A stretch of 64,000 nt of DNA, taken from positions 8,412-72,411 of the forward strand of contig CAJMSU010000001.1 in the NCBI GenBank assembly GCA_905216155.1, given 5' to 3'. The notes below the pieces were generated by a model that ran no database searches, was not told where the DNA came from, and was given only the letters and a program-made list of their open reading frames with translations. Numbering within the stretch: the stretch's first letter is position 1; every line of letters begins with the position of its first letter. This document shows positions 324 to 46,279 of this stretch, piece after piece. Source of the DNA: an uncultured bacterium. Lineage in GTDB: Bacteria > Bacillota_I > Bacilli_A > RF39 > UBA660. The translations under genes were made by a program, and so were the position numbers.

Positions 324-1133
324 ATGAAGCAAGAAAAAGTAAAATTAATTAAAGGTAAAAAGATGCATTTTATAGGTAAATATCAGATACTTAAAAATAG
401 AGATGACTATTATAAATTATTTGATAAATATTTTGGAATGAACTGTATGGATGATAGGGTTTTTATATCTTATGAAATAGGTTATAAAGAAAAAAATATT
501 AAGTGTTTTATTGGTAAAGTATTAAGTGATCAAGCATTTGAATATTCTGATAAGAAATTTAGAAAACTTGATTTGGATGATAATGGGAAAATAAATTCAT
601 TTTTATATGTTAAAACTTGTAATGTTCGGGATGGTTATAAAGAAATTATAGAATATGCTAATAAATTTAATATTCAAATTAGAGGTGCATTTGTAGAGGT
701 TACTTCAGCAAAAAATAAACTGGTAGAAATATTTGTTGAGGCGTATGATTTAAATGTAGAAAATAAGGATGAGATAAAGTTTAGATATGAAAAATTAAAT
801 AATATTAGTAATAGACATGATAAAAAATATATAGGTAGATGGATAATGCAAGGTGAAATTGTTGAACTTATAAAAGATTTTAAGCCTAGAGTTAGACATG
901 AAATACCAAATGGTGCAAAAGTTATTTTGGAATTACATGAAGATGGGTCTACTAATTATGATAATATTACCTGGAAGGAGAATTATTTAATAATGAATGA
1001 TGATGGAACTATATATTTAGATTATTTAAATGCTCCTAAAAAATATTTATTTAAAACTTATATGACTGTTTTAATTAATAGAAAAGAATCCAATGCTAGG
1101 CCTTTAAAATGTTATTATAAGAAGGTGAAATAA
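324..1133 (+). CDS. Hypothetical protein; N-terminal half resembles a GyrI-like/effector-binding domain, C-terminal ~110 aa unassigned
   Basis: 269-aa ORF. Its stop overlaps the next start (TAATG at 1131..1135). The domain call rests only on by-eye pattern similarity. Confidence 0.45.
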   Translation: MKQEKVKLIKGKKMHFIGKYQILKNRDDYYKLFDKYFGMNCMDDRVFISYEIGYKEKNIKCFIGKVLSDQAFEYSDKKFRKLDLDDNGKINSFLYVKTCNVRDGYKEIIEYANKFNIQIRGAFVEVTSAKNKLVEIFVEAYDLNVENKDEIKFRYEKLNNISNRHDKKYIGRWIMQGEIVELIKDFKPRVRHEIPNGAKVILELHEDGSTNYDNITWKENYLIMNDDGTIYLDYLNAPKKYLFKTYMTVLINRKESNARPLKCYYKKVK

Positions 1134-1435
1134 TGAAAAAGTTTAATGAATTAGATGAAGATTTTGTATGTGAATATTGCCATAGTGAGGTTAGTCCTTT
1201 AATATATTCTTCAAGGGATCATTGTCCAATATGTTTGTATTCAAAACATGTTGATATAAATCCTGGAGATAGAAAAAATAATTGTAAGGGACTATTAAAA
1301 CCAATTGGTATAGAAAAATTTAGAGATACATATAAAATATTATATAAATGTGAAAAATGTGGACAACTTCATAAAAATATTATGGCAAAAGATGATGATA
1401 TGAATAAAATTATTGAAATTTCTAACATAAAATAA
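1133..1435 (+). CDS. RNHCP domain-containing zinc-ribbon protein
   Basis: 100 aa. SRDHCPICLYSKHVD matches the RNHCP signature, and there are CxxC pairs CEYC, CPIC and CEKC. Translationally coupled to the upstream ORF. Confidence 0.75.
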   Translation: MKKFNELDEDFVCEYCHSEVSPLIYSSRDHCPICLYSKHVDINPGDRKNNCKGLLKPIGIEKFRDTYKILYKCEKCGQLHKNIMAKDDDMNKIIEISNIK

Positions 1436-1462
1436 ATCTCTACTGTAAAGTGTAGAGATTTT
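1434..1462. terminator. Bidirectional intrinsic terminator between convergent genes
   Basis: Perfect 10-bp stem aaatctctac (1434..1443) / gtagagattt (1452..1461) with an 8-nt loop. It has a T-run on the plus strand and an A-run upstream. Confidence 0.8.
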
Positions 1463-1814: not shown

Positions 1815-2806
1815 TATACTACCTCCAAACTTATAGCATTAGCTATAGAATAAATATTTTCTTTTTGATAAACCATAGTTGGTGAAAACAAGGCACCTGT
1901 TGCTACTAATAGAACTTTCTTTAATTTTTTTTGTTTTAGTTCATTATAAACGTATCCATAATTTACTAATGCACTACATACTGGTCCACTTCCACCGGCA
2001 AGGCATTCTTCTTGATTATTTAAATCATATAACATTACACCACAATCATTATAGTTTTTTGATAAATCTAATTTGTATTCTTTTAACATGAATTCTTTTA
2101 CTATTTCTTTACCATATTTTCCAAGATCACCAGTTAGAATTAAATCATAATAATCTGGTGTTCTTTTTGTTGCTTCTAAATGTCTTTTTATGGTATCTAT
2201 TGCTGCTGGTGCCATCACTCTTCCCATATCATTAGGGTCGTTTTGTTCAAAATCTATTATTTTACCAATAGTTGAACTTTCAACTTTTATATCTGTTTTT
2301 TTATTTGTTAATAAAATTGATGCTGCTCCTGTTGCTGTAAATGTTGCACTTTGTGGTTTTGGTGCACCATATTCAGTTGGATTTCTAAATTGTTTTTCTG
2401 ATGTCATATTATGTGATGATACTGTAACAATAGCGTTTTTTATTTTTTTAGAATCTATTAGACTACTGGCAATTATCATACCTTCTACACTAGTACTACA
2501 AGCACCATATATTCCCATGAATGATTTTGAATATCCCACTGCTCCATATGTAGTTGCTGCTATTTGATTTAATAGATCTCCACCTACTAATAATTCTACT
2601 TCTCCTTTTTTTAATCCGGCTTTTTTGTTTAACATATCTAAATTATCTTTTACCAATTTAATTTCTGATTTTTCCCATGAATCTTCTCCAAAGTATAAAT
2701 CTTGATATGTTTTATCATAGTATTTTTTTAATGGTCCATCTTTTTCATATGGTCCTGCTACTGTTGCTGTTTCTTGTACATAAACATTGTCATATTTAAA
2801 TGTCAT
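1814..2806 (-). CDS. spoVAD: Stage V sporulation protein AD (thiolase-like fold)
   Basis: 330 aa with a conserved SpoVAD-like sequence (MTFKYDNVYV...GPYEKDGPL...GACST). Flanked by spoVAC and spoVAE with overlapping stops and starts. Confidence 0.9.
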   Translation of the reverse strand: MTFKYDNVYVQETATVAGPYEKDGPLKKYYDKTYQDLYFGEDSWEKSEIKLVKDNLDMLNKKAGLKKGEVELLVGGDLLNQIAATTYGAVGYSKSFMGIYGACSTSVEGMIIASSLIDSKKIKNAIVTVSSHNMTSEKQFRNPTEYGAPKPQSATFTATGAASILLTNKKTDIKVESSTIGKIIDFEQNDPNDMGRVMAPAAIDTIKRHLEATKRTPDYYDLILTGDLGKYGKEIVKEFMLKEYKLDLSKNYNDCGVMLYDLNNQEECLAGGSGPVCSALVNYGYVYNELKQKKLKKVLLVATGALFSPTMVYQKENIYSIANAISLEVV

Positions 2807-3246
2807 ACTCCACCTCCTATTATGAATCTAATCATTCCAAAAAACCAGGCTGATACAACACCATATAAAATTACTGATCCGGCTAATTTAAAAATATTAG
2901 ATCCTATTCCATATATTGGTCCTTCTTTTCTATAGTCAAGAGCAGAACTTGTCATTGAATGTGCAAAACCAGTTATGGGAATTAAAATACCACATTTAAA
3001 CTTTGTTACTAATTTATCAAAGAAACCAAGAGCTGTACAAAATGAGGCTATGAATATTAAAATAATTATCATAAATGTTGAAGATTCTGTTCTTGATATT
3101 TGAAAGTAATGACAAATTATTTCTATTATGGCCTCTCCTAACATTCCAATTAATCCACCTACAATAAATGCAATAATTGCATTTTTTATTCTTCTTTCTT
3201 CTGCTTTATTACTATCTGCTATTTTTTCATATTTTATATTTTTCAT
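2803..3246 (-). CDS. spoVAC: Stage V sporulation protein AC
   Basis: The AFIVGGLIGMLGE region is typical of SpoVAC. Start moved to MKNIKYEK (ATG 3246), giving ~147 aa. The track ORF extends to 3315. Confidence 0.85.
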   Translation of the reverse strand: MKNIKYEKIADSNKAEERRIKNAIIAFIVGGLIGMLGEAIIEIICHYFQISRTESSTFMIIILIFIASFCTALGFFDKLVTKFKCGILIPITGFAHSMTSSALDYRKEGPIYGIGSNIFKLAGSVILYGVVSAWFFGMIRFIIGGGV

Positions 3247-3324
3247 ATATATATCACCAGTAATATTATTGGTAATTTTTTTATTTTCATACAAAAAAAG
3301 ATTGATTATTATCAACCTTTAACT

Positions 3325-4779
3325 TTATTTTGATCTTTTTGGCATAACTGGATTTTCTTTTTTATTATCACCTGACATTTGTCTTAATGCTGATATTAGT
3401 TCCATTCTTTTTATATCAGTATCTATTTTGTTATTATTTTTAATGTTACTTACATTTTTGTTTTGTTCAATCTCATTAATAAGTTTTTGTCTTTCTTGTT
3501 GCTTTAATATTTCAATTTCACTTTCATCATAAAATATAGCTTTTAATAATCTTTCTTCTTTTCTTTCTGGATATTTGTCTTTTACTATACTTTCTATTAA
3601 ATCAACATTTAATGGATATTTTTCATGATCTATTGAATGCTCTACTCTTCTTACTTGATATAATATATCAATAAATTTTGATTTATCTATCTCTTTAGAT
3701 AATATGCTATTTAGTTGTGCTATAACTTTATTTATATCATCTTCAGTAATATTAGTACCTTTTTCTAAATATTTTTTAATTTGTTTGCATTTTTCTACTT
3801 TATCATTTTGATTAAGATTTCCAAATATCTCAATACTTTTTTTTGCAAAAAATAAGCTTTCATTTTTCTCAACAAATAATGGTACTTGCATTTCTCTTAA
3901 CTTTATTAATCTTTCATATATTCCCATAATGCCTTGATATTTACTTGGTTCTAGATCTGATAATTGTTTATATTTAATTGCAAATATAATTGAATTCATA
4001 AATGTTTCATAACTATTTAAAAATGAATTATTTTCTTTCTTTTTACTTCCCCAAGTTACATCTGTTTCATATACTCCTGATATATCATATTTATTATCAT
4101 TTATATATATAATATTTGACATATGACTAGTATGTTTTGATTCATTAATATGATTATATATAACTGTATCAGTTTTTATTCCTAATTCATTTAAAATAGC
4201 AGAATATATTTGCGAAAAACCTGCACATACAATTTCTTCACTATTGTATACTTCACTTAGTGATCTTGATTTACTAATATTATTGCTTGTTGTTGCTTTG
4301 TATGTTCTTTCCCTTGTCAAATCATATACGAACATAGCAGTTTCTATTTTTGATAAGTTAAAATGTTTTACATATTTTTTTATATTATTTACATAGTTTA
4401 GCATATCTATAACTTTATCACCATTTACATAATCATAATAATTATATTTTGTTCTATAATTAGTTCTATCATTTAATAAATTACTTTTTATTATGCCAAT
4501 AATTTTTTCATTTTCTATATCTTTAAAATTACAATATTTAATATTATTTTTTAATGCATTTATAATTTCAATATAGTCATCTGGCAAATATTCTATATTT
4601 AAATAAATATCATTAAACTTTGTTAAATTTGTTTGTAACAGTTTTTCTACATCTTTATAACTTGATATATTAGTTATATTATCTTCTGATACTTCATCTA
4701 GTAGTTCTATATTATATATTTTTCCGTTATCTTTTGACTTTCTATCAATTAAATTAATAAATAAATTTTCCTTAGACAT
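3325..4779 (-). CDS. Cytoplasmic transglutaminase-like (Cys-His-Asp) domain protein with a long helical C-terminal region
   Basis: 484 aa with no signal peptide. The core VCAGFSQIYSAILNELGI...HTSHMSNIIYI...YETDVTWG fits the transglutaminase-like cysteine protease motif (C...H...D). Confidence 0.55.
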   Translation of the reverse strand: MSKENLFINLIDRKSKDNGKIYNIELLDEVSEDNITNISSYKDVEKLLQTNLTKFNDIYLNIEYLPDDYIEIINALKNNIKYCNFKDIENEKIIGIIKSNLLNDRTNYRTKYNYYDYVNGDKVIDMLNYVNNIKKYVKHFNLSKIETAMFVYDLTRERTYKATTSNNISKSRSLSEVYNSEEIVCAGFSQIYSAILNELGIKTDTVIYNHINESKHTSHMSNIIYINDNKYDISGVYETDVTWGSKKKENNSFLNSYETFMNSIIFAIKYKQLSDLEPSKYQGIMGIYERLIKLREMQVPLFVEKNESLFFAKKSIEIFGNLNQNDKVEKCKQIKKYLEKGTNITEDDINKVIAQLNSILSKEIDKSKFIDILYQVRRVEHSIDHEKYPLNVDLIESIVKDKYPERKEERLLKAIFYDESEIEILKQQERQKLINEIEQNKNVSNIKNNNKIDTDIKRMELISALRQMSGDNKKENPVMPKRSK

Positions 4780-4871
4780 AGTTACACCTCTGGCTTATTC
4801 TATCATAATAATTATTTATTAACAATTAATATTATATAAATACAAAAAAATTTATAAAAATAATGATATTT

Positions 4872-5507
4872 TTATAAATTGCTTTTTAATTTTTGTAATA
4901 TTTTGGTTTCTTTTCTTGATACTTGTACTTGACTTATTCCTAGGTGCTTACTAGTTTCTTTTTGAGTTAATTCATTAAAATATCTATCTATTATTAATTC
5001 TTTTTCTTCTTCTTTTAAATTCATTAATTCATTTTTTAAATCTAGAATATCTGGTCTTGTTGTTTTATCCTCTGTTTTTATGGAGTTATATAATTCATAA
5101 CTTTCATCGTCATAAGAATAATCTAGGCTTTTTACTTTTTCTGTTGCTAATTGGGCTTCTTTTATTTTTTCCTCTTCTATTTCTAAGAATTGTGATAATT
5201 CTTTAATAGTTGGTTCTTTTTTTAATCTTTGTCTCATTATATCTTTGGCTTTTTCTATACTTTTATTTAATTTAATTAATTCTCTACTTATTTTTATTGT
5301 ACTTGATTCTCTTATATACTTTTTTATTTCACCTATTATATAAAAATATGCATATGTTGAAAATTTTACATTTAGTTTCTTATCATAGTTTTTGTAGGCA
5401 TTTATAAGTCCAAGCATTCCTACTTGGTACATATCATCTTTATCAAAATTTGAATATTTTCTTATTATGCTATAAATTAAATTTTCGTATTGTAGTATTT
5501 CTTCCAT
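4872..5507 (-). CDS. sigF: Sporulation-type RNA polymerase sigma factor (SigF-like)
   Basis: 211 aa. Region 2 is FSTYAYFYIIGEIKKYIRES and region 4.2 is HLGISQVQVSRKETKIL (GISQVQVSR is typical of SigF/SigG). Sits between a STAS gene and the spoVA operon. Confidence 0.8.
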   Translation of the reverse strand: MEEILQYENLIYSIIRKYSNFDKDDMYQVGMLGLINAYKNYDKKLNVKFSTYAYFYIIGEIKKYIRESSTIKISRELIKLNKSIEKAKDIMRQRLKKEPTIKELSQFLEIEEEKIKEAQLATEKVKSLDYSYDDESYELYNSIKTEDKTTRPDILDLKNELMNLKEEEKELIIDRYFNELTQKETSKHLGISQVQVSRKETKILQKLKSNL

Positions 5508-5517
5508 TTTAAATCTC

Positions 5518-5856
5518 CTATATTTTTAAATATTTAAATGCATCTTGTTCTTCATTTACATAAAATAGTTTATCTTTTGATGTTCCAATTACTCTTTTTT
5601 GGAGTTTATTTACACCACACATTACTACTTGTCCACAACTTAAAAATATCTCAGTTAATATATTTTGAAATTTAGTAAATATATTTTGATCTATGTTATC
5701 TAAATTTTTAAAATTTAATACATAATAATGAATTCCTTGTTTATATAATAAATAATTTAATTCATCATAAAAAGTATTTATTGTACTACTATTTAAATTA
5801 CCTTCTAATCTTATAAAAATTATGCCTCTATTTACTTGGGTTGTAATTTCTAGCAT
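5518..5856 (-). CDS. spoIIAA: STAS-domain anti-anti-sigma-like protein (SpoIIAA-like) lacking the phosphorylatable Ser
   Basis: 112 aa. It aligns by eye over its length with B. subtilis SpoIIAA. The DSSG phospho-site is replaced by DQNI. It ends 10 nt upstream of sigF. Confidence 0.7.
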   Translation of the reverse strand: MLEITTQVNRGIIFIRLEGNLNSSTINTFYDELNYLLYKQGIHYYVLNFKNLDNIDQNIFTKFQNILTEIFLSCGQVVMCGVNKLQKRVIGTSKDKLFYVNEEQDAFKYLKI

Positions 5857-5908
5857 ATTTATTCACCTCTATAAAAATATAGAACATAATTAGTATTTTT
5901 TATACCTT

Positions 5909-5951
5909 TTCGACAAAACATGTCATTTATTTCATTCGATTTTATTCGACA
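5909..5951 (-). promoter_or_regulatory. Two perfect Spo0A boxes (TGTCGAA) upstream of the spoIIAA-like/sigF operon
   Basis: The reverse complement of 5909..5915 and of 5945..5951 is TGTCGAA (contexts gTTTTGTCGAAAAgg and tTTTGTCGAAtaa). A CGAA half-site lies at 5935..5941. The boxes sit about 55 and 90 nt upstream of the start codon. Confidence 0.6.
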
Positions 5952-5975
5952 AAAAAAGACTAGCTGTAGTCTTTT
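5951..5975 (-). terminator. Intrinsic terminator of the 79-aa gene
   Basis: 9-bp stem aaaagacta (5954..5962) / tagtctttt (5967..5975) with a 4-nt loop. A U-run follows in the minus-strand transcript. Confidence 0.75.
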
Positions 5976-6199
5976 AATTTAATAAGTTCTTCTTTATTTA
6001 ATCCAGTTGATTTTTTTATTATTTCTATATCTATATTGTTTTCTAGTAAGTGTTTTGCGATTTCTAGAGATTTTTCCTTTTCTCCTGCTTCTTTTCCTAT
6101 TTCATAATATTCTTCTTGAAGAGCCATTTCTTTATCATAACTTTCTCCAAAATATTCATCATCCATTACTTTTTCTACTTCTTCCATATACTCTTCCAT
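5960..6199 (-). CDS. Small acidic protein (79 aa) equivalent to the C-terminal tail of Rpn/YhgA-like (transposase_31) nucleases; possible orphan RpnS-like protein
   Basis: Strong RBS (aggaggtataaatataATG). The C-terminus KSLEIAKHLLENNIDIEIIKKSTGLNKEELIKLK resembles the conserved tail of Firmicute Rpn-family proteins. Degenerate paralogous copies lie at 46990..47228 and 57815..57840. Confidence 0.55.
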   Translation of the reverse strand: MEEYMEEVEKVMDDEYFGESYDKEMALQEEYYEIGKEAGEKEKSLEIAKHLLENNIDIEIIKKSTGLNKEELIKLKDYS

Positions 6200-6209
6200 T
6201 ATATTTATA

Positions 6210-6288
6210 CCTCCTATTACAAAAAAATATATTGAATAAATCTATCCAATATATTATTATCTTTTTGTTTTTGTTTTCCTTTTAATTT
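6210..6288 (-). repeat. Conserved ~80-nt hairpin-terminator/RBS block, copy 1 of 3
   Basis: Near-identical to 47529..47608 and similar to 57851..57931. The stem is 6226..6236 / 6245..6255, followed by a U7 run on the minus strand. Confidence 0.85.
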
Positions 6289-7221
6289 TTATTGTTTTTT
6301 GAATAACTTTTTGATATTTTCCTTTGGCATTAACATTTTTGATGTTTTATCTACTTTGAATGTAAACTTTTTATTATTAGATTTATATTCTTCACCATCT
6401 ATACACCAAGAAGTCTTTGGTTTGTTTAGAAATTCTATTTCTAGATTATTAGTTTGATAATATGTAATACCTGGTACTTTCTTTAAATCTCTTGTTGTTG
6501 CTTGAACCATCATTTTTAGTATTTCTCTTTTTGTTCTTGGGTTTGCTAAGGCAACCTCAAACATATTATCATCTAACTTTATATCATAATATATATCATC
6601 AACACCTGCTACTCGTGATGAATTTGTTATAAATATAAATGAAAACTTTCCTTCATAATTTTTACCATCTATTTTATATTTTATATTATACATATTGGTT
6701 TTATTTTTTAATTGTTTTAATCCATACATTATATATGCTAGTTTTCCATATTTTTTCTTTAGGGATCTTGGCGTATTATATGCCATATCTATAAAATCTC
6801 CAAGACATGCAACATAAACAAATGGGGTATTATTTATATAACAAACATCTATATTTTTTTCTACTCCGGTTAGTAATAACTCTAGATTTTTTTGGTAATT
6901 TTTGGTATATCCAAACATATTGGCTACGTCATTAGTTGTTCCCATAGGAAGATTGGCAAGAACTAAATGATTTTCTCTTAACATATTTCCTGTTACAACT
7001 TCATTTAAAGTACCATCTCCACCGGCACTTATTACTAAGTCTACATCATCATCTAATTCTTTAACAATTTTAGTTGCATCTTTTTTTTGCTTTGTATATT
7101 TAATCTCTGCATCATATCCATGTTTTCTTAAAATGTCATAGAAATCTTTTTTATTATCTAATTTTTTTACTTTTCCACTTTCGGGGTTCATTATGATTAT
7201 ACATTTTTTCAAAATAATCAA
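6289..7221 (-). CDS. dagK: Diacylglycerol kinase family lipid kinase (DagK/YegS-like)
   Basis: 310 aa with the GGDGTLNEV catalytic-domain motif and the NPESGK N-terminal motif. Confidence 0.85.
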   Translation of the reverse strand: MIILKKCIIIMNPESGKVKKLDNKKDFYDILRKHGYDAEIKYTKQKKDATKIVKELDDDVDLVISAGGDGTLNEVVTGNMLRENHLVLANLPMGTTNDVANMFGYTKNYQKNLELLLTGVEKNIDVCYINNTPFVYVACLGDFIDMAYNTPRSLKKKYGKLAYIMYGLKQLKNKTNMYNIKYKIDGKNYEGKFSFIFITNSSRVAGVDDIYYDIKLDDNMFEVALANPRTKREILKMMVQATTRDLKKVPGITYYQTNNLEIEFLNKPKTSWCIDGEEYKSNNKKFTFKVDKTSKMLMPKENIKKLFKKQ

Positions 7222-7425: not shown

Positions 7426-7460
7426 AAAAGAATGGATTAAATTATACTGTTTAATCCATT
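7426..7460 (-). terminator. Intrinsic terminator of the GH25 gene
   Basis: Perfect 10-bp stem aatggattaa (7431..7440) / ttaatccatt (7451..7460) overlapping the stop codon. CUUUUG follows on the minus strand. Confidence 0.65.
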
Positions 7461-44257: not shown

Positions 44258-46279
44258 ATGTCAAAAGATACCGATGAGTTAGAAAAGAAGCCAAAAAGAA
44301 GGTTTGTAATATTGTTTTTTTTAATTATTGCACTTATTACTAGTCTTTTTGCAATATATGAACTTTACTTACTTAGTTCAATAGAAACTTTAATAAGATA
44401 TATTATTATGGGATTTTTAGTCTTTATTGATTTGATTTTTATATTTAAGACTAAAAGATTTTTTAAACCTTTTAAAAAGAAAAAGAAGAAAAAGAAAAAA
44501 TCCAAGGGGATTATGTTAATTATTTTTATGATTTTATATTCGCTTGTATGTGGTTTTGTTGGTGGTGCTATATTCTATGTTTATGGTGAGGTTAGTAATA
44601 TAAATAAGGTGTATGTTACTTATTCATCTAGTTTAGTTACTATGAGTAAGAATAGTGCTGATAAAGTATCTGATATAAAAGATTATAAAATTGGTATATT
44701 AAAAGATAAAACTTCTCCTGAGGGGTATATTATTCCTCAAGAAATAATAAAAGAAAATAATTTGAATGATAATAATGAAATTAAAAAATATGATGACTAC
44801 TCTACTATGTTAGTTGATCTATATTCTGGTGAGATTGATGCAATGTTTACATCTAGTAGTTATGTATCTATGTTTTCATCAATTACTGGATATGAAAATA
44901 TTCAAACTGATACTAAAGTTATTATTACTAAAGATAAGAAAATGAAGAAGTCTGATGCTTCTATTAATGAGACAGCTTCTAGTGGTAAATCTATAAAGGA
45001 ACCTTTTACTATATTACTTATGGGAATTGATTCTACTGATGAGGTTTTAAGTAAAAATGCTATTGCTAATGGTGATACTTTAATTCTTGTAACATTTAAT
45101 CCTAAAACTTTAAATGCTACTATGATTTCTATTCCAAGAGATAGTTATGTTCCAATTGCTTGTTGGCCTAGTAAAGATGAAAATAAAATTACTCATGCTG
45201 CTGGTTATGGTACTGATTGTATGATGAATACAATAGAGGAATACTTTGATGTTAATATTGATTATTATGCAAAAATAAACTTTAAGGGACTTGTTAAATT
45301 GGTTGATGCTGTTGGTGGTGTTGATGTTGAGGTTCCTAGAAAATTATGTACTGATGACTCTTCTCGTGGTGGACAGGTTTGTATCCAAGAAGGAAAACAA
45401 CATTTAAATGGTGAGGAAGCTTTAGTTTTTGCAAGAAACAGAAAGCAACTTGCTGAGGGAGATTTTGGTAGAGCTAAACATCAACAAGAAATTGTTGTTC
45501 AACTTGTTAATAAGATGAAAGACATTACTGAGGTTTCTAAATTCATGGAAATTTTAAATACTGTATCTAATAGTATAGATACTAATTTAACTACTAAACA
45601 AATATTATCATTTTATAATATAGCTAAAGATATTGTTAAAAAGAGCTTAGCTGCTGATGATGCAGATTTAGTAAATATACAACAATTATATTTAGCTGGT
45701 AATGGACAAATGATTTATGATGAAAGAATGAGAATGGTTTTATGGGATTATGTTCCTAATAAAAATAGTAAAAAAGATATTATTAGAGCGATGAAAGAAA
45801 ACTTAGAACTTGTTGATCATAAACCTATAAAAAAATTTAGTTTTTCAGCAAACGATCCTTATGAAAAGGAAATTATTGGTGAGGGGCCATACAAAATTAG
45901 TTATACTTATAAACTATTACCAAGTTTTATTGGTGACAGTGAAAGTGCTGCTAGAAGTTATGCTAATGCTAATGGTATTAGAGTAACATTTAGAGGATCT
46001 GGTGGTCATGTTGTTAGTCAAAGTGTTCCTGCTAATAAGAGAATTGATAAAATTACTGGTAGTGTTGTATTAACTCTTTCTGGTGGTACTTCAAATAATA
46101 CTAATACTACAACACAAAAAAGCGATAAAAATGAAAATACATCTAAGGATACATCTAAAGATACATCTAAGGACACATCTAAGGATACATCTAAAGATAC
46201 ATTTGAAAAACCATCTACTCCTAGTAAAGATGATGCTACTAAACCAGGAGATGAGGGTGATACAACTGGTTCTAATTGA
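44258..46279 (+). CDS. LytR-CpsA-Psr (LCP) family glycopolymer ligase with extra domains
   Basis: LCP core FTILLMGIDS...GDTLILVTFNP...ISIPRDSYV...INFKGLVKLVDAVGGVDV. One N-terminal TM helix plus a poly-Lys tract. A PASTA-like module LPSFIGDSESAARSYANANGIRV. A TSKD x5 tail. Start at ATG 44258 (RBS ggagga). Confidence 0.85.
   Translation: MSKDTDELEKKPKRRFVILFFLIIALITSLFAIYELYLLSSIETLIRYIIMGFLVFIDLIFIFKTKRFFKPFKKKKKKKKKSKGIMLIIFMILYSLVCGFVGGAIFYVYGEVSNINKVYVTYSSSLVTMSKNSADKVSDIKDYKIGILKDKTSPEGYIIPQEIIKENNLNDNNEIKKYDDYSTMLVDLYSGEIDAMFTSSSYVSMFSSITGYENIQTDTKVIITKDKKMKKSDASINETASSGKSIKEPFTILLMGIDSTDEVLSKNAIANGDTLILVTFNPKTLNATMISIPRDSYVPIACWPSKDENKITHAAGYGTDCMMNTIEEYFDVNIDYYAKINFKGLVKLVDAVGGVDVEVPRKLCTDDSSRGGQVCIQEGKQHLNGEEALVFARNRKQLAEGDFGRAKHQQEIVVQLVNKMKDITEVSKFMEILNTVSNSIDTNLTTKQILSFYNIAKDIVKKSLAADDADLVNIQQLYLAGNGQMIYDERMRMVLWDYVPNKNSKKDIIRAMKENLELVDHKPIKKFSFSANDPYEKEIIGEGPYKISYTYKLLPSFIGDSESAARSYANANGIRVTFRGSGGHVVSQSVPANKRIDKITGSVVLTLSGGTSNNTNTTTQKSDKNENTSKDTSKDTSKDTSKDTSKDTFEKPSTPSKDDATKPGDEGDTTGSN
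46139..46202 (+). repeat. 12-bp tandem repeat x5.3 encoding (TSKD)n
   Basis: acatctaaggat / acatctaaagat / acatctaaggac units are read directly from the sequence. Confidence 0.9.

Follow-up and report, generated by a model that had tools for sequence, protein, structure and literature searches.

We here present evidence that a sporulation sigma factor operon, found in a 64-kb stretch of DNA (the window) from an uncultured, very AT-rich gut bacterium, has no gene for the SpoIIAB anti-sigma factor and kinase, and that the SpoIIAA-like STAS protein encoded upstream of the sigma factor no longer carries the serine that is phosphorylated in its relatives. The explanation that probably holds for the locus as a whole is that of a spoIIA operon minus spoIIAB, in which sigma-F would be set by Spo0A~P and the STAS protein would act by stoichiometric binding. 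In the textbook switch of endospore formers, SpoIIE, SpoIIAA, SpoIIAB and sigma-F together link the onset of compartment-specific gene expression to asymmetric division, and to our knowledge the SpoIIAB kinase and the SpoIIE phosphatase have been thought universal in endospore cell-fate determination.

Results

Gene order and the missing kinase

In the operon (Table 1) the sigma gene follows the STAS gene directly, the TAG stop codon of the latter and the ATG of the former being 10 nt apart (TAGGAGATTTAAAATG, 5520-5505). This junction is one of tight translational coupling and leaves no room for spoIIAB. A preliminary description of the locus had given this order on the minus strand, noted the missing spoIIAB, and placed a spoVAC-AD-AE operon further downstream; the order and the missing gene were borne out, and so were the spoVA genes, except that a 484-aa ORF lying in between had gone unmentioned. 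A tblastn search of the window with B. subtilis SpoIIAB and RsbW sequences returned nothing (best E 1.8), Pfam searches of 38 of its larger ORFs found neither a HATPase nor a PP2C domain, and about 300 kb in 26 related loci contained no SpoIIAB/RsbW-like sequence.

The order was compared in nine relatives (L011, L016, L018, L019, L021, L023, L025, L027 and L029), divergent loci drawn from the breadth of the STAS family, as far out as family E-values of 1e-7 to 1e-8. In 9/9 of them the sigma gene comes directly after the STAS gene, with no kinase gene and with junctions that vary between an overlap of 4 nt and a gap of 12 nt, which agrees with the earlier view that the absence of spoIIAB is no annotation gap. 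In a further locus, L015, the sigma gene stands behind a Spo0A box (0A box) without any STAS gene, so that the STAS protein is dispensable in at least one lineage. Only spoVA and scpAB were consistently linked to the STAS-sigma pair. A conserved third partner was considered and rejected, the 484-aa ORF after sigma and a 485-aa ORF before STAS in L011 being unrelated.

Table 1. Features of the STAS-sigma locus and the downstream spoVA genes (window positions)
Feature	Position	Strand	Remarks
Distal Spo0A-box-like motif TTTGTCGAA	5945-5953	minus	core TGTCGAA
Proximal Spo0A-box-like motif TTTGTCGAA	5909-5917	minus	core from -59 of STAS ATG; abuts -35 position
Candidate -10 element CTATATT	5876-5882	minus	putative promoter function
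Ribosome-binding site AGAGGTG	5864-5870	minus	
STAS gene	5518-5856	minus	112 aa
Gln57 codon CAA	5686-5688	minus	equivalent of SpoIIAA Ser58; beta3-alpha2 loop
STAS stop, 10-nt spacer with GGAG, sigma start	5505-5520	minus	tight translational-coupling junction
Sigma gene	4872-5507	minus	211 aa
AT-only inverted repeat TTATAAAAATA / TATTTTTATAA with T-run	4844-4877	minus	overlaps sigma stop; by eye
484-aa ORF between sigma and spoVAC	3325-4779	minus	
GTATG-N16-CAATAATA motif upstream of spoVAC	3264-3292	minus	
spoVAC	2803-3246	minus	Pfam SpoVAC_SpoVAEB E 3.9e-30; TIGR02838 147.9 bits
spoVAD	1814-2806	minus	Pfam SpoVAD E 3.2e-122
spoVAE (SpoVAEB type)	1464-1814	minus	TIGR02839 142.8 bits (cut-off 131.1)
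Bidirectional hairpin terminator	1434-1461	.	closes spoVA genes and convergent RNHCP gene

Identity of the sigma factor

The sigma factor contains regions 2, 3 and 4 of the sigma-70 type. Among named families it scores best with SigB/F/G (182 bits) and spore_sigF (170), followed by SigG (136/121) and SigB (112), all of these scores falling under the curated cut-offs; with TIGR02885 (SigF) it reaches 169.8 bits, under the equivalog cut-off of 321.45, and this is still the best specific sigma family. In the window and seven relatives the SigF HMM beats the SigG HMMs by 25-55 bits and also outscores SigB. Among solved structures the best relative is SigF 1L0O_C (126.9 bits versus 90 for the next solved sigma factor), to residues 37-243 of which residues 7-208 align, the N-terminus being about 30 residues shorter than that of the solved SigF. 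The region 4.2 motif GISQVQVSR differs by one residue from GISQVQMSR of this Geobacillus protein. These HMM and pairwise scores, together with the spoIIA-spoVA synteny and the Spo0A boxes, support a SigF-like identity, as the preliminary description had assumed, over SigG or SigB.

Homologs of the sigma factor are numerous (1892 at E<=1e-10), the best 120 of these being mostly of 209-214 aa, with three of 218-227 aa. The nearest genome representative is Mycoplasma sp. CAG:611, at 57% identity; the family CAG-611 is placed in order RF39 by GTDB (PMC8035907). Within the species 1-12 differences were found in the sigma gene, all of them synonymous, which is no evidence of selection because the contigs compared had been picked for carrying an identical sigma protein.

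The STAS protein and its lost phospho-serine

The 112-aa protein matches Pfam STAS at E 1.3e-8 and scores 26.8 bits with TIGR02886 (SpoIIAA), under the equivalog cut-off of 114.75. With a profile of its family the top solved structures are those of SpoIIAA (1AUZ/1TH8, E 2e-8; positions 2-92, gapless), and RsbS (6JHK) is the second-best family. An AlphaFold model of the protein (pLDDT 88.3, pTM 0.81) has the beta-alpha sandwich of the STAS fold, of about 110 aa, and in Foldseek its top match is SpoIIAA 1TH8_B (TM 0.82). The protein is SpoIIAA-derived, as judged from these sequence and fold matches, with which the spoIIA-spoVA synteny agrees. It also has the position expected of SpoIIAA, as the product of the first gene of a sigF operon behind a promoter that, from its conserved 0A boxes, would be Spo0A dependent. 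Two attributes of SpoIIAA are missing, namely an adjacent cognate SpoIIAB (10-nt gap; 9/9 relatives alike) and the phosphorylatable serine of the DSSG loop (B. subtilis Ser58), in place of which the window has Gln57.

The latter had been proposed from a by-eye alignment of FMDSSGLG with NIDQNIFT. The gapless profile alignment to 1AUZ/1TH8 reproduces it: 'idkn' faces 'MDSS', so that Ser58 lies opposite Gln57, and the phospho-site holds neither Ser nor Thr. In the AlphaFold model Gln57 lies between a strand (44-55) and a helix (59-72). Among 130 representatives of the STAS family the Ser58 column is one of the most variable (entropy 3.61 bits; K19 N19 E16 I14 S13 L12), with Ser in 13/130 (10%) and with Glu, Asp, Lys, Ile and Leu all tolerated, whereas 106/130 retain Asp57 and 91/130 retain Gly60. 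The SpoIIAA hallmarks Gly20, Asn49, Asp57, Gly60 and Cys are kept and the phospho-serine is gone, and across the clade the Ser58 position drifts freely, with no sign of constraint on the phospho-site. Three residues were considered as substitute phospho-acceptors and rejected: the place of Thr25 is that of the canonical helix cap, conservation of Ser73 is confined to the window's subfamily, and Thr61 is variable.

The STAS family comprises 51 close homologs and, at E<=1e-3, 316 clusters at 50% identity, across which the ORFs stay intact. Conserved motifs vary from subfamily to subfamily, that of the window having invariant NYLLYKQG.HY and EIFLSCGKVV.CG. From its sequence conservation the protein would appear to be under purifying selection; within the species the STAS gene shows 0-4 synonymous differences, too few to judge dN/dS. 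The STAS protein diverges faster than the sigma factor, identity to the window being 31% versus 57% in L011 and 56% versus about 60% in L018. Apparent natural STAS fusions (representatives of 134-268 aa) proved on reading to be mis-called starts or chimeras.

Promoter and termination signals

Counting both strands, the 64 kb has only three TGTCGAA cores, and two of them lie upstream of STAS. Spo0A boxes are found in 11/11 loci: L011 has an inverted box at -54, in L016 the distance from the box to the STAS start is 85 nt, and the remaining relatives (L018, L019, L021, L023, L025, L027, L029 and L015) have one in the same orientation at about -55 to -70, a second upstream box being present also in L018, L019 and L025. 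In L019, L021, L023, L025 and L029 CTATATT or TCTAAATT recurs, equally far from the 0A box. A generic sigma-70 scan of the window gave 52 matches versus 45 expected and is uninformative in DNA of 23% GC.

The AT-only inverted repeat at the end of the sigma gene is a candidate for a weak terminator; it was not called by a terminator scan that required at least three G-C pairs, and L016, L018 and L021 have clearer hairpin-plus-T-run terminators after sigma. An Rfam scan of the window yielded no RNA family at gathering score.

Downstream genes

The 484-aa ORF has a weak match to Transglut_core (E 1.3e-3, under the cut-off) and none in NCBIfam. It lies between sigma and spoVAC in this species only, being missing from that place in L016, L018, L019, L021, L025 and L027.

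By curated family scores and by their order C-D-E, the three genes that follow are spoVA genes, which encode the dipicolinate channel. The score of spoVAC is slightly under its cut-off of 164, and its start is likely the ATG at 3246 behind GGTGAT, to judge by L016, L018 and L025, the mechanical ORF reaching to 3315. SpoVAD attains 417 bits with NF006160 (cut-off 402) and 409.1 bits with the equivalog TIGR02845, under 411.8. Upstream of spoVAC, GTATG-N16-CAATAATA resembles a forespore promoter of the sigma-G/sigma-F type, and in L018, L021 and L025 the corresponding position is taken by GTAT[AGT]-N17-CATAATA/CATATTA. Since the loose sigma-G-type pattern gives 7 matches in the window versus 7.9 expected and is uninformative at this GC content, it is this positional conservation alone that speaks for the motif.

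Discussion

The locus shares with the spoIIA operon of Bacillus and Clostridium a Spo0A-box promoter, a SpoIIAA-fold STAS gene in first place and a SigF-type sigma gene in last, and with B. subtilis also the spoVA genes downstream of sigma. It differs in the absence of the middle gene spoIIAB, which encodes the anti-sigma factor and serine kinase, in having Gln for Ser58 (almost any residue across the clade), in a sigma factor without about 30 N-terminal residues, and in that both proteins fall under the equivalog cut-offs. Single-domain STAS proteins of the same fold are also found in the RsbV-RsbW-SigB system and the RsbS/RsbR stressosome; however, these need the RsbW or RsbT kinase and a conserved Ser/Thr, and in contrast to the SigB system the sigma factor of the window scores 112 bits with SigB versus 170 with SigF and has a promoter with Spo0A boxes.

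Because conserved Spo0A boxes lie upstream of kinase-less STAS-sigma loci, one can presume that these are spoIIA operons stripped of their phospho-switch. The host would belong to a fast-evolving, genome-reduced lineage of the Bacilli, most likely order RF39, in which spoIIAB would have been deleted from the operon. The phosphorylation cycle of SpoIIE, SpoIIAB and SpoIIAA would then no longer control sigma-F, the appearance of which would be set by Spo0A~P-dependent transcription. The STAS protein, presumably made in step with sigma-F, would most likely bind sigma-F or another partner stoichiometrically, with no phospho-switch, and sigma-F or a sigma-G paralog may then drive genes of the forespore, the adjacent spoVA among them. 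That loss of both the kinase and its target residue points to a kinase-independent gating of sigma-F had been suggested in the preliminary description, and the profile alignment, the SigF scores and the relatives support it; the mode of gating is what we infer here. One specific form of it, in which the STAS protein would have taken over from SpoIIAB and would itself bind sigma-F stoichiometrically, as an anti-sigma or holding factor, with forespore-specific activation through removal or sequestration of the STAS protein instead of SpoIIE-driven dephosphorylation, we hold to be unlikely.

Another possibility, which we consider rather unlikely, is that the genome has, at some other place, a gene for a diverged anti-sigma factor, either a kinase-dead GHKL protein such as UsfX or an unrelated protein, and that the STAS protein is still its antagonist, regulated not by serine phosphorylation but through abundance, proteolysis, a ligand or redox state. 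In the SigF-UsfX-RsfA/RsfB system of Mycobacterium tuberculosis, the STAS antagonist can work without phosphorylation by the cognate anti-sigma factor. That system, built on a SigF-family sigma factor, is a precedent both for a kinase-inactive anti-sigma-F and for kinase-independent partner switching, and its UsfX-RsfB complex (8IH8) turned up in the fold comparison of the STAS protein; the system differs in that the GHKL-fold UsfX is encoded beside sigF, no such gene being sigF-linked here, and in not serving sporulation. The STAS family moreover keeps Asn49, Asp57 and Gly60 at the old phospho-site, so that the loop could still dock a partner. A homolog could also have been missed, since absence calls based on KO thresholds may be escaped by an anti-sigma factor as diverged as the STAS protein (27 versus 115 bits) and the sigma factor (170 versus 321), which are far under their cut-offs. 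Against this, neither the window nor some 300 kb of related loci contains a candidate, no gene other than spoVA and scpAB is consistently linked to the pair, and the STAS gene is lost in L015. The Ser58 column, in addition, takes Glu, Asp, Lys, Ile and Leu, and substitutions of this type in canonical SpoIIAA strongly change SpoIIAB binding.

It could also be that the STAS protein is a leftover without a role in sigma-F control, or has been co-opted elsewhere, and that sigma-F is regulated by Spo0A-dependent transcription only. The solitary sigma gene behind an 0A box in L015, the faster evolution of the STAS protein and the differences in conserved motifs between subfamilies would fit this. 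However, the STAS gene has remained intact and tightly coupled to sigma over hundreds of clusters at 50% identity, and this in a lineage prone to losing genes, the protein has preserved the core SpoIIAA hallmarks as well as subfamily-specific invariant motifs, and its AlphaFold model is confident, and we regard this explanation as quite improbable. That the module is a decaying remnant in a non-sporulating lineage, or that the sigma factor is a SigB-like stress factor, is very improbable indeed: all family scores are under the curated cut-offs, no spores are known from RF39 and the machine-learning tool SpoMAG gives RF39 genomes a sporulation probability of 0% (PMC12536801), but spoVAC, spoVAD and spoVAE are intact (spoVAD and spoVAE above curated cut-offs), the Spo0A boxes are kept in 11/11 loci, SigF outscores SigG and SigB throughout, and spo0A, spoIIGA, spoIIP, spoIIQ and spoIIIAH are retained in RF39 according to the accessible part of a survey (PMC10868615). 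The 0% probability and the lack of known RF39 spores, like the loss of the STAS gene in L015, count against the main explanation as well.

The loss of spoIIAB and spoIIE in RF39 is not new and has been published at survey level. In the accessible part of that 2024 study, which rests on KO thresholds, both genes are reduced, rare or absent in the order, spo0A and engulfment genes are kept, and sporulation with a different regulation is predicted (PMC10868615). It is a KO presence/absence table, and as far as its accessible part goes, it gives no account of the locus or its promoter, of the STAS protein that is retained there or of the lost phospho-serine, nor does the accessible part of the supplement hold a per-gene table for spoIIAB, spoIIAA or spoIIE (PMC10868615). 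For a retained, non-phosphorylatable SpoIIAA no earlier description was found in the literature. With regard to spores, an experiment that transferred spore-forming microbiota on egg surfaces transplanted few taxa, RF39 sequence variants being among these (PMC7028958), and sporulation predictors that treat spoIIAB as obligatory call RF39 non-sporulating (PMC12536801).

The clade, which is large and common in the gut, amounts to a natural deletion experiment, in which Spo0A boxes, sigma-F, a SpoIIAA relic and spoVA have been kept, and the kinase and the phospho-site have been dropped. Either outcome would be informative, be it a simpler or different gate for sigma-F or the decay of the switch during genome reduction. 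If the STAS protein has indeed replaced SpoIIAB, cell fate in endospore formation would here be determined with neither the kinase nor the phosphatase.

The kinase-less sigma-F locus

ORFs and Pfam and family matches bear out the gene order of the preliminary description, a STAS gene followed by a sigma factor gene with the spoVA genes downstream, in a window of about 23% G+C. It had also reported the kinase gene as missing here, and this holds: the spacer between the STAS and sigma genes is 10 nt (TAGGAGATTTAAAATG), and tblastn of the 64 kb with B. subtilis SpoIIAB and RsbW queries gave no match (best E 1.8). Neither a HATPase nor a PP2C domain was detected by Pfam scan of 38 of the larger ORFs in the window.

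Features of the window and of two relative loci, L015 (rumen genome RUG591) and L011 (Mycoplasma sp. CAG:611)
Feature	Position	Strand	Remarks
RNHCP-domain zinc-ribbon gene	1133-1435	+	100 aa; convergent to spoVAE
spoVAC, spoVAD, spoVAE		-	In that order, after the 484-aa ORF
484-aa ORF	3325-4779	-	Between sigma gene and spoVAC; weak Transglut_core, E 1.3e-3, below cut-off
Sigma ORF	4872-5507	-	211 aa; sigma-70 regions 2, 3, 4
STAS ORF	5518-5856	-	112 aa; Pfam STAS, E 1.3e-8
Gln57 codon	5686-5688	-	In STAS ORF
TTTGTCGAA, two copies	5945-5953 and 5909-5917		Upstream of STAS gene; Spo0A-box core TGTCGAA
Rpn/PDDEXK_2 recombination nuclease remnant	5960-6199	-	C-terminal 79 aa; just upstream of Spo0A boxes
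Secreted protein	7459-10776	-	1105 aa; many ricin-B-lectin repeats, C-terminal GH25 muramidase domain
UPF0236-type transposase	10939-12258	+	Three consecutive ORF fragments (183, 87, 95 aa)
Cell-wall polysaccharide/teichoic-acid cluster	12800-35300 and 35372-46279		Large
L015 6S RNA gene	9693-9880	+	Rfam 61.5 bits; immediately before TTTGTCGAA box
L015 SigF-like sigma	9971-10612	+	TTTGTCGAA box 55 nt upstream
L011 collagen-like protein	6223-6846	+	207 aa; GPxGxx repeat; near STAS-sigma pair

The sigma factor, read as sporulation-type from its region 4.2 motif GISQVQVSR, is SigF-like by HMM and pairwise scores, and its gene lies within the classical spoIIA-spoVA neighbourhood. Its best named families were SigB/F/G (182 bits) and sporulation SigF (170 bits), followed by SigG (136 and 121) and SigB (112), all below curated cut-offs; in the window and seven relatives the SigF equivalog model led the SigG models by 25-55 bits and was ahead of SigB too. 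Among solved structures the best match is the SigF of Geobacillus in complex with SpoIIAB (1L0O_C, 127 bits; next sigma 90), relative to which the protein starts about 30 residues later; among the close homologs listed, lengths are mostly 209-214 aa.

At least 21 contigs of the same species, assembled from human gut metagenomes, carry the identical sigma factor, each time with the same neighbours. For the STAS protein there are 51 close homologs, and searching 1.84 billion cluster representatives with a profile returned 316 clusters at E<=1e-3, 63 of them at E<=1e-10. Among the NCBI labels of close homologs is 'MAG: Bacilli bacterium'. A sigma gene (212-221 aa) directly follows the STAS gene in all nine context loci (L011, L016, L018, L019, L021, L023, L025, L027, L029), which sample the full span of scores and include the nearest genome representative; at the junctions the two genes range from overlapping by 4 nt to lying 12 nt apart, and spoVAC-AD-AE usually comes next, though not in L011. 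No SpoIIAB/RsbW-like sequence was found in about 300 kb of relative loci. The kinase gene is thus absent from the locus clade-wide, and the view that this is no annotation gap stands. In L015 the sigma gene occurs alone, without a STAS gene, which looks like a further reduction stage of the same operon. The collagen-like protein of L011 is a candidate BclA-like exosporium protein, judging from its repeat.

Within the species, the STAS start codon is GTG in 10 of 10 contigs (L001-L010) and ATG in the window (5854-5856). Sigma genes differ by 1-12 changes, all synonymous, by construction, since these contigs were chosen by exact sigma protein identity. L001 has the nuclease at its full length of 305 aa; in other strains it is variously truncated.

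The phospho-site of the STAS protein

The STAS protein has the SpoIIAA fold. A profile of 38 family members matched best, among solved structures, SpoIIAA (1AUZ, 1TH8, 1TID; E 2e-8 to 6e-8), with RsbS next, and the alignment runs without gaps over positions 2-92, placing the family's 'i-d-k-n' opposite 'M-D-S-S' and Gln57 opposite Ser58. In an AlphaFold model built from the family alignment (pLDDT 88.3, pTM 0.81), residue 57 lies in the loop joining strand 44-55 and helix 59-72, and the top Foldseek match was 1TH8_B, SpoIIAA of the SpoIIAB complex (TM 0.82). Profile alignment, loop position and Foldseek ranking together show that the earlier by-eye alignment of the phospho-site was correct. 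The codon coordinates given earlier are also right.

In canonical SpoIIAA, Ser58 is the invariant substrate of SpoIIAB. Among 130 full-length representatives aligned to the family profile, few columns of the protein vary as much as the equivalent one (entropy 3.61 bits; K19, N19, E16, I14, S13, L12 and others), whereas nearby hallmarks are retained: Asp57 in 106/130, Gly60 in 91/130 and Asn49 in 119/129. Also retained are Gly20, the Gly and Cys conserved in beta4, and the C-terminal Glu and Ala. The serine is missing and the residue drifts across the clade; such free drift in an otherwise conserved loop is expected if no kinase acts there. Two representatives, P0212 and P0311, have Ser at this position, yet no kinase gene in their genomic context. 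In the window's own subfamily Gly60 is also gone (IDQNIF), and two invariant motifs have been gained, NYLLYKQG.HY (residues 34-45) and EIFLSCGKVV.CG (residues 69-81), which, judging from fold topology, would face away from the old phospho-site, at the other pole.

Candidate promoters and terminators

The region upstream of the STAS gene has the arrangement of an early sporulation promoter and would presumably be activated by Spo0A~P. The two strands of the entire window together hold only three TGTCGAA cores. Spo0A boxes are conserved at the locus: in all context loci except L016 and L011, and in the STAS-less L015, a box in the same orientation precedes the start codon by 55-70 nt. A putative -10 element resembling CTATATT comes after it at constant spacing. 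The box is 85 nt upstream in L016 and inverted in L011, and three relatives (L018, L019, L025) have a second, more distal one.

Several loci have a hairpin terminator after the sigma gene and then GTAT(A/G/T)-N17-CATAATA before spoVAC, a motif that resembles forespore promoters of the sigma-G/sigma-F type. In the window the loose pattern shows no enrichment (7 found against 7.9 expected), so that what counts is its conserved position. The 484-aa ORF, an insertion limited to the window species, may be a forespore-expressed acquisition, because the TTTTTTTGTAT motif found ahead of spoVAC also stands in front of this ORF. It is unrelated to the 485-aa ORF that precedes the STAS gene in L011.

Remainder of the window

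Elsewhere the window carries genes for the synthesis of wall polysaccharide and teichoic acid and for PASTA and LytR-CpsA-Psr proteins, as well as gatB, gatA and ligA; the organism is a walled bacterium. The wall cluster comprises glycosyltransferases, an ABC-2 exporter, a CDP-glycerol glycerophosphotransferase, an O-antigen-ligase-like fusion, two DUF6020 membrane proteins, a LytR-CpsA-Psr-PASTA fusion and a 629-aa protein in which four PASTA domains, but no kinase domain, can be recognised. The secreted protein is size-variable or absent among same-species strains (L002, L004, L005, L008), and the UPF0236 fragments look like a disrupted mobile-element gene. The RNHCP gene keeps its position, beside scpA and scpB, in several distant relatives (L016, L018, L019). 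Small zinc-binding proteins can serve as anti-sigma factors; nothing ties this product to sigma-F.

Discussion

Of the species representatives found, Mycoplasma sp. CAG:611 is the nearest (sigma identity 57%); GTDB places the family CAG-611 in the order RF39 (PMC8035907), to which the window organism would therefore belong. Losses of spoIIAB and spoIIE in RF39 are already published at survey level, and that survey lists spo0A, spoIIGA, spoIIM, spoIIP, spoIIQ and spoIIIAH as kept (PMC10868615). A machine-learning sporulation predictor scored RF39 genomes at 0% and found spoIIAB in all its predicted spore-formers (PMC12536801). Circumstantial evidence comes from an egg-surface transplant by which spore-forming microbiota were passed on: the few taxa transferred included RF39 sequence variants (PMC7028958). 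No example of a STAS protein acting directly on a sigma factor is listed in a review of STAS-only proteins (PMC8256260). In the literature we found no description of a retained, non-phosphorylatable SpoIIAA or of the locus; as far as found, this phospho-dead SpoIIAA is new, and so are the promoter and the architecture of the locus across the clade.

The preliminary observation is confirmed, and its interpretation is supported as far as testable. A rival explanation is that a diverged, possibly kinase-dead anti-sigma factor is encoded elsewhere in the genome, and proteins of this lineage do score far below curated thresholds. It could also be that the STAS protein is a relic without a role, and L015 shows that it can be lost; nevertheless, in a lineage that sheds genes, its gene has been kept across hundreds of clusters at 50% identity and in tight coupling with the sigma gene, which argues for retained function. 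Decay of the pathway in a non-sporulating lineage is at odds with the intact spoVA genes and conserved promoters.

The locus is a variant of the known spoIIA system, in which sigma-F would no longer be under the SpoIIE/SpoIIAB phospho-cycle and its production would be gated by Spo0A~P. The STAS protein would still function without use of phosphorylation, most plausibly by stoichiometric binding to sigma-F or another partner.
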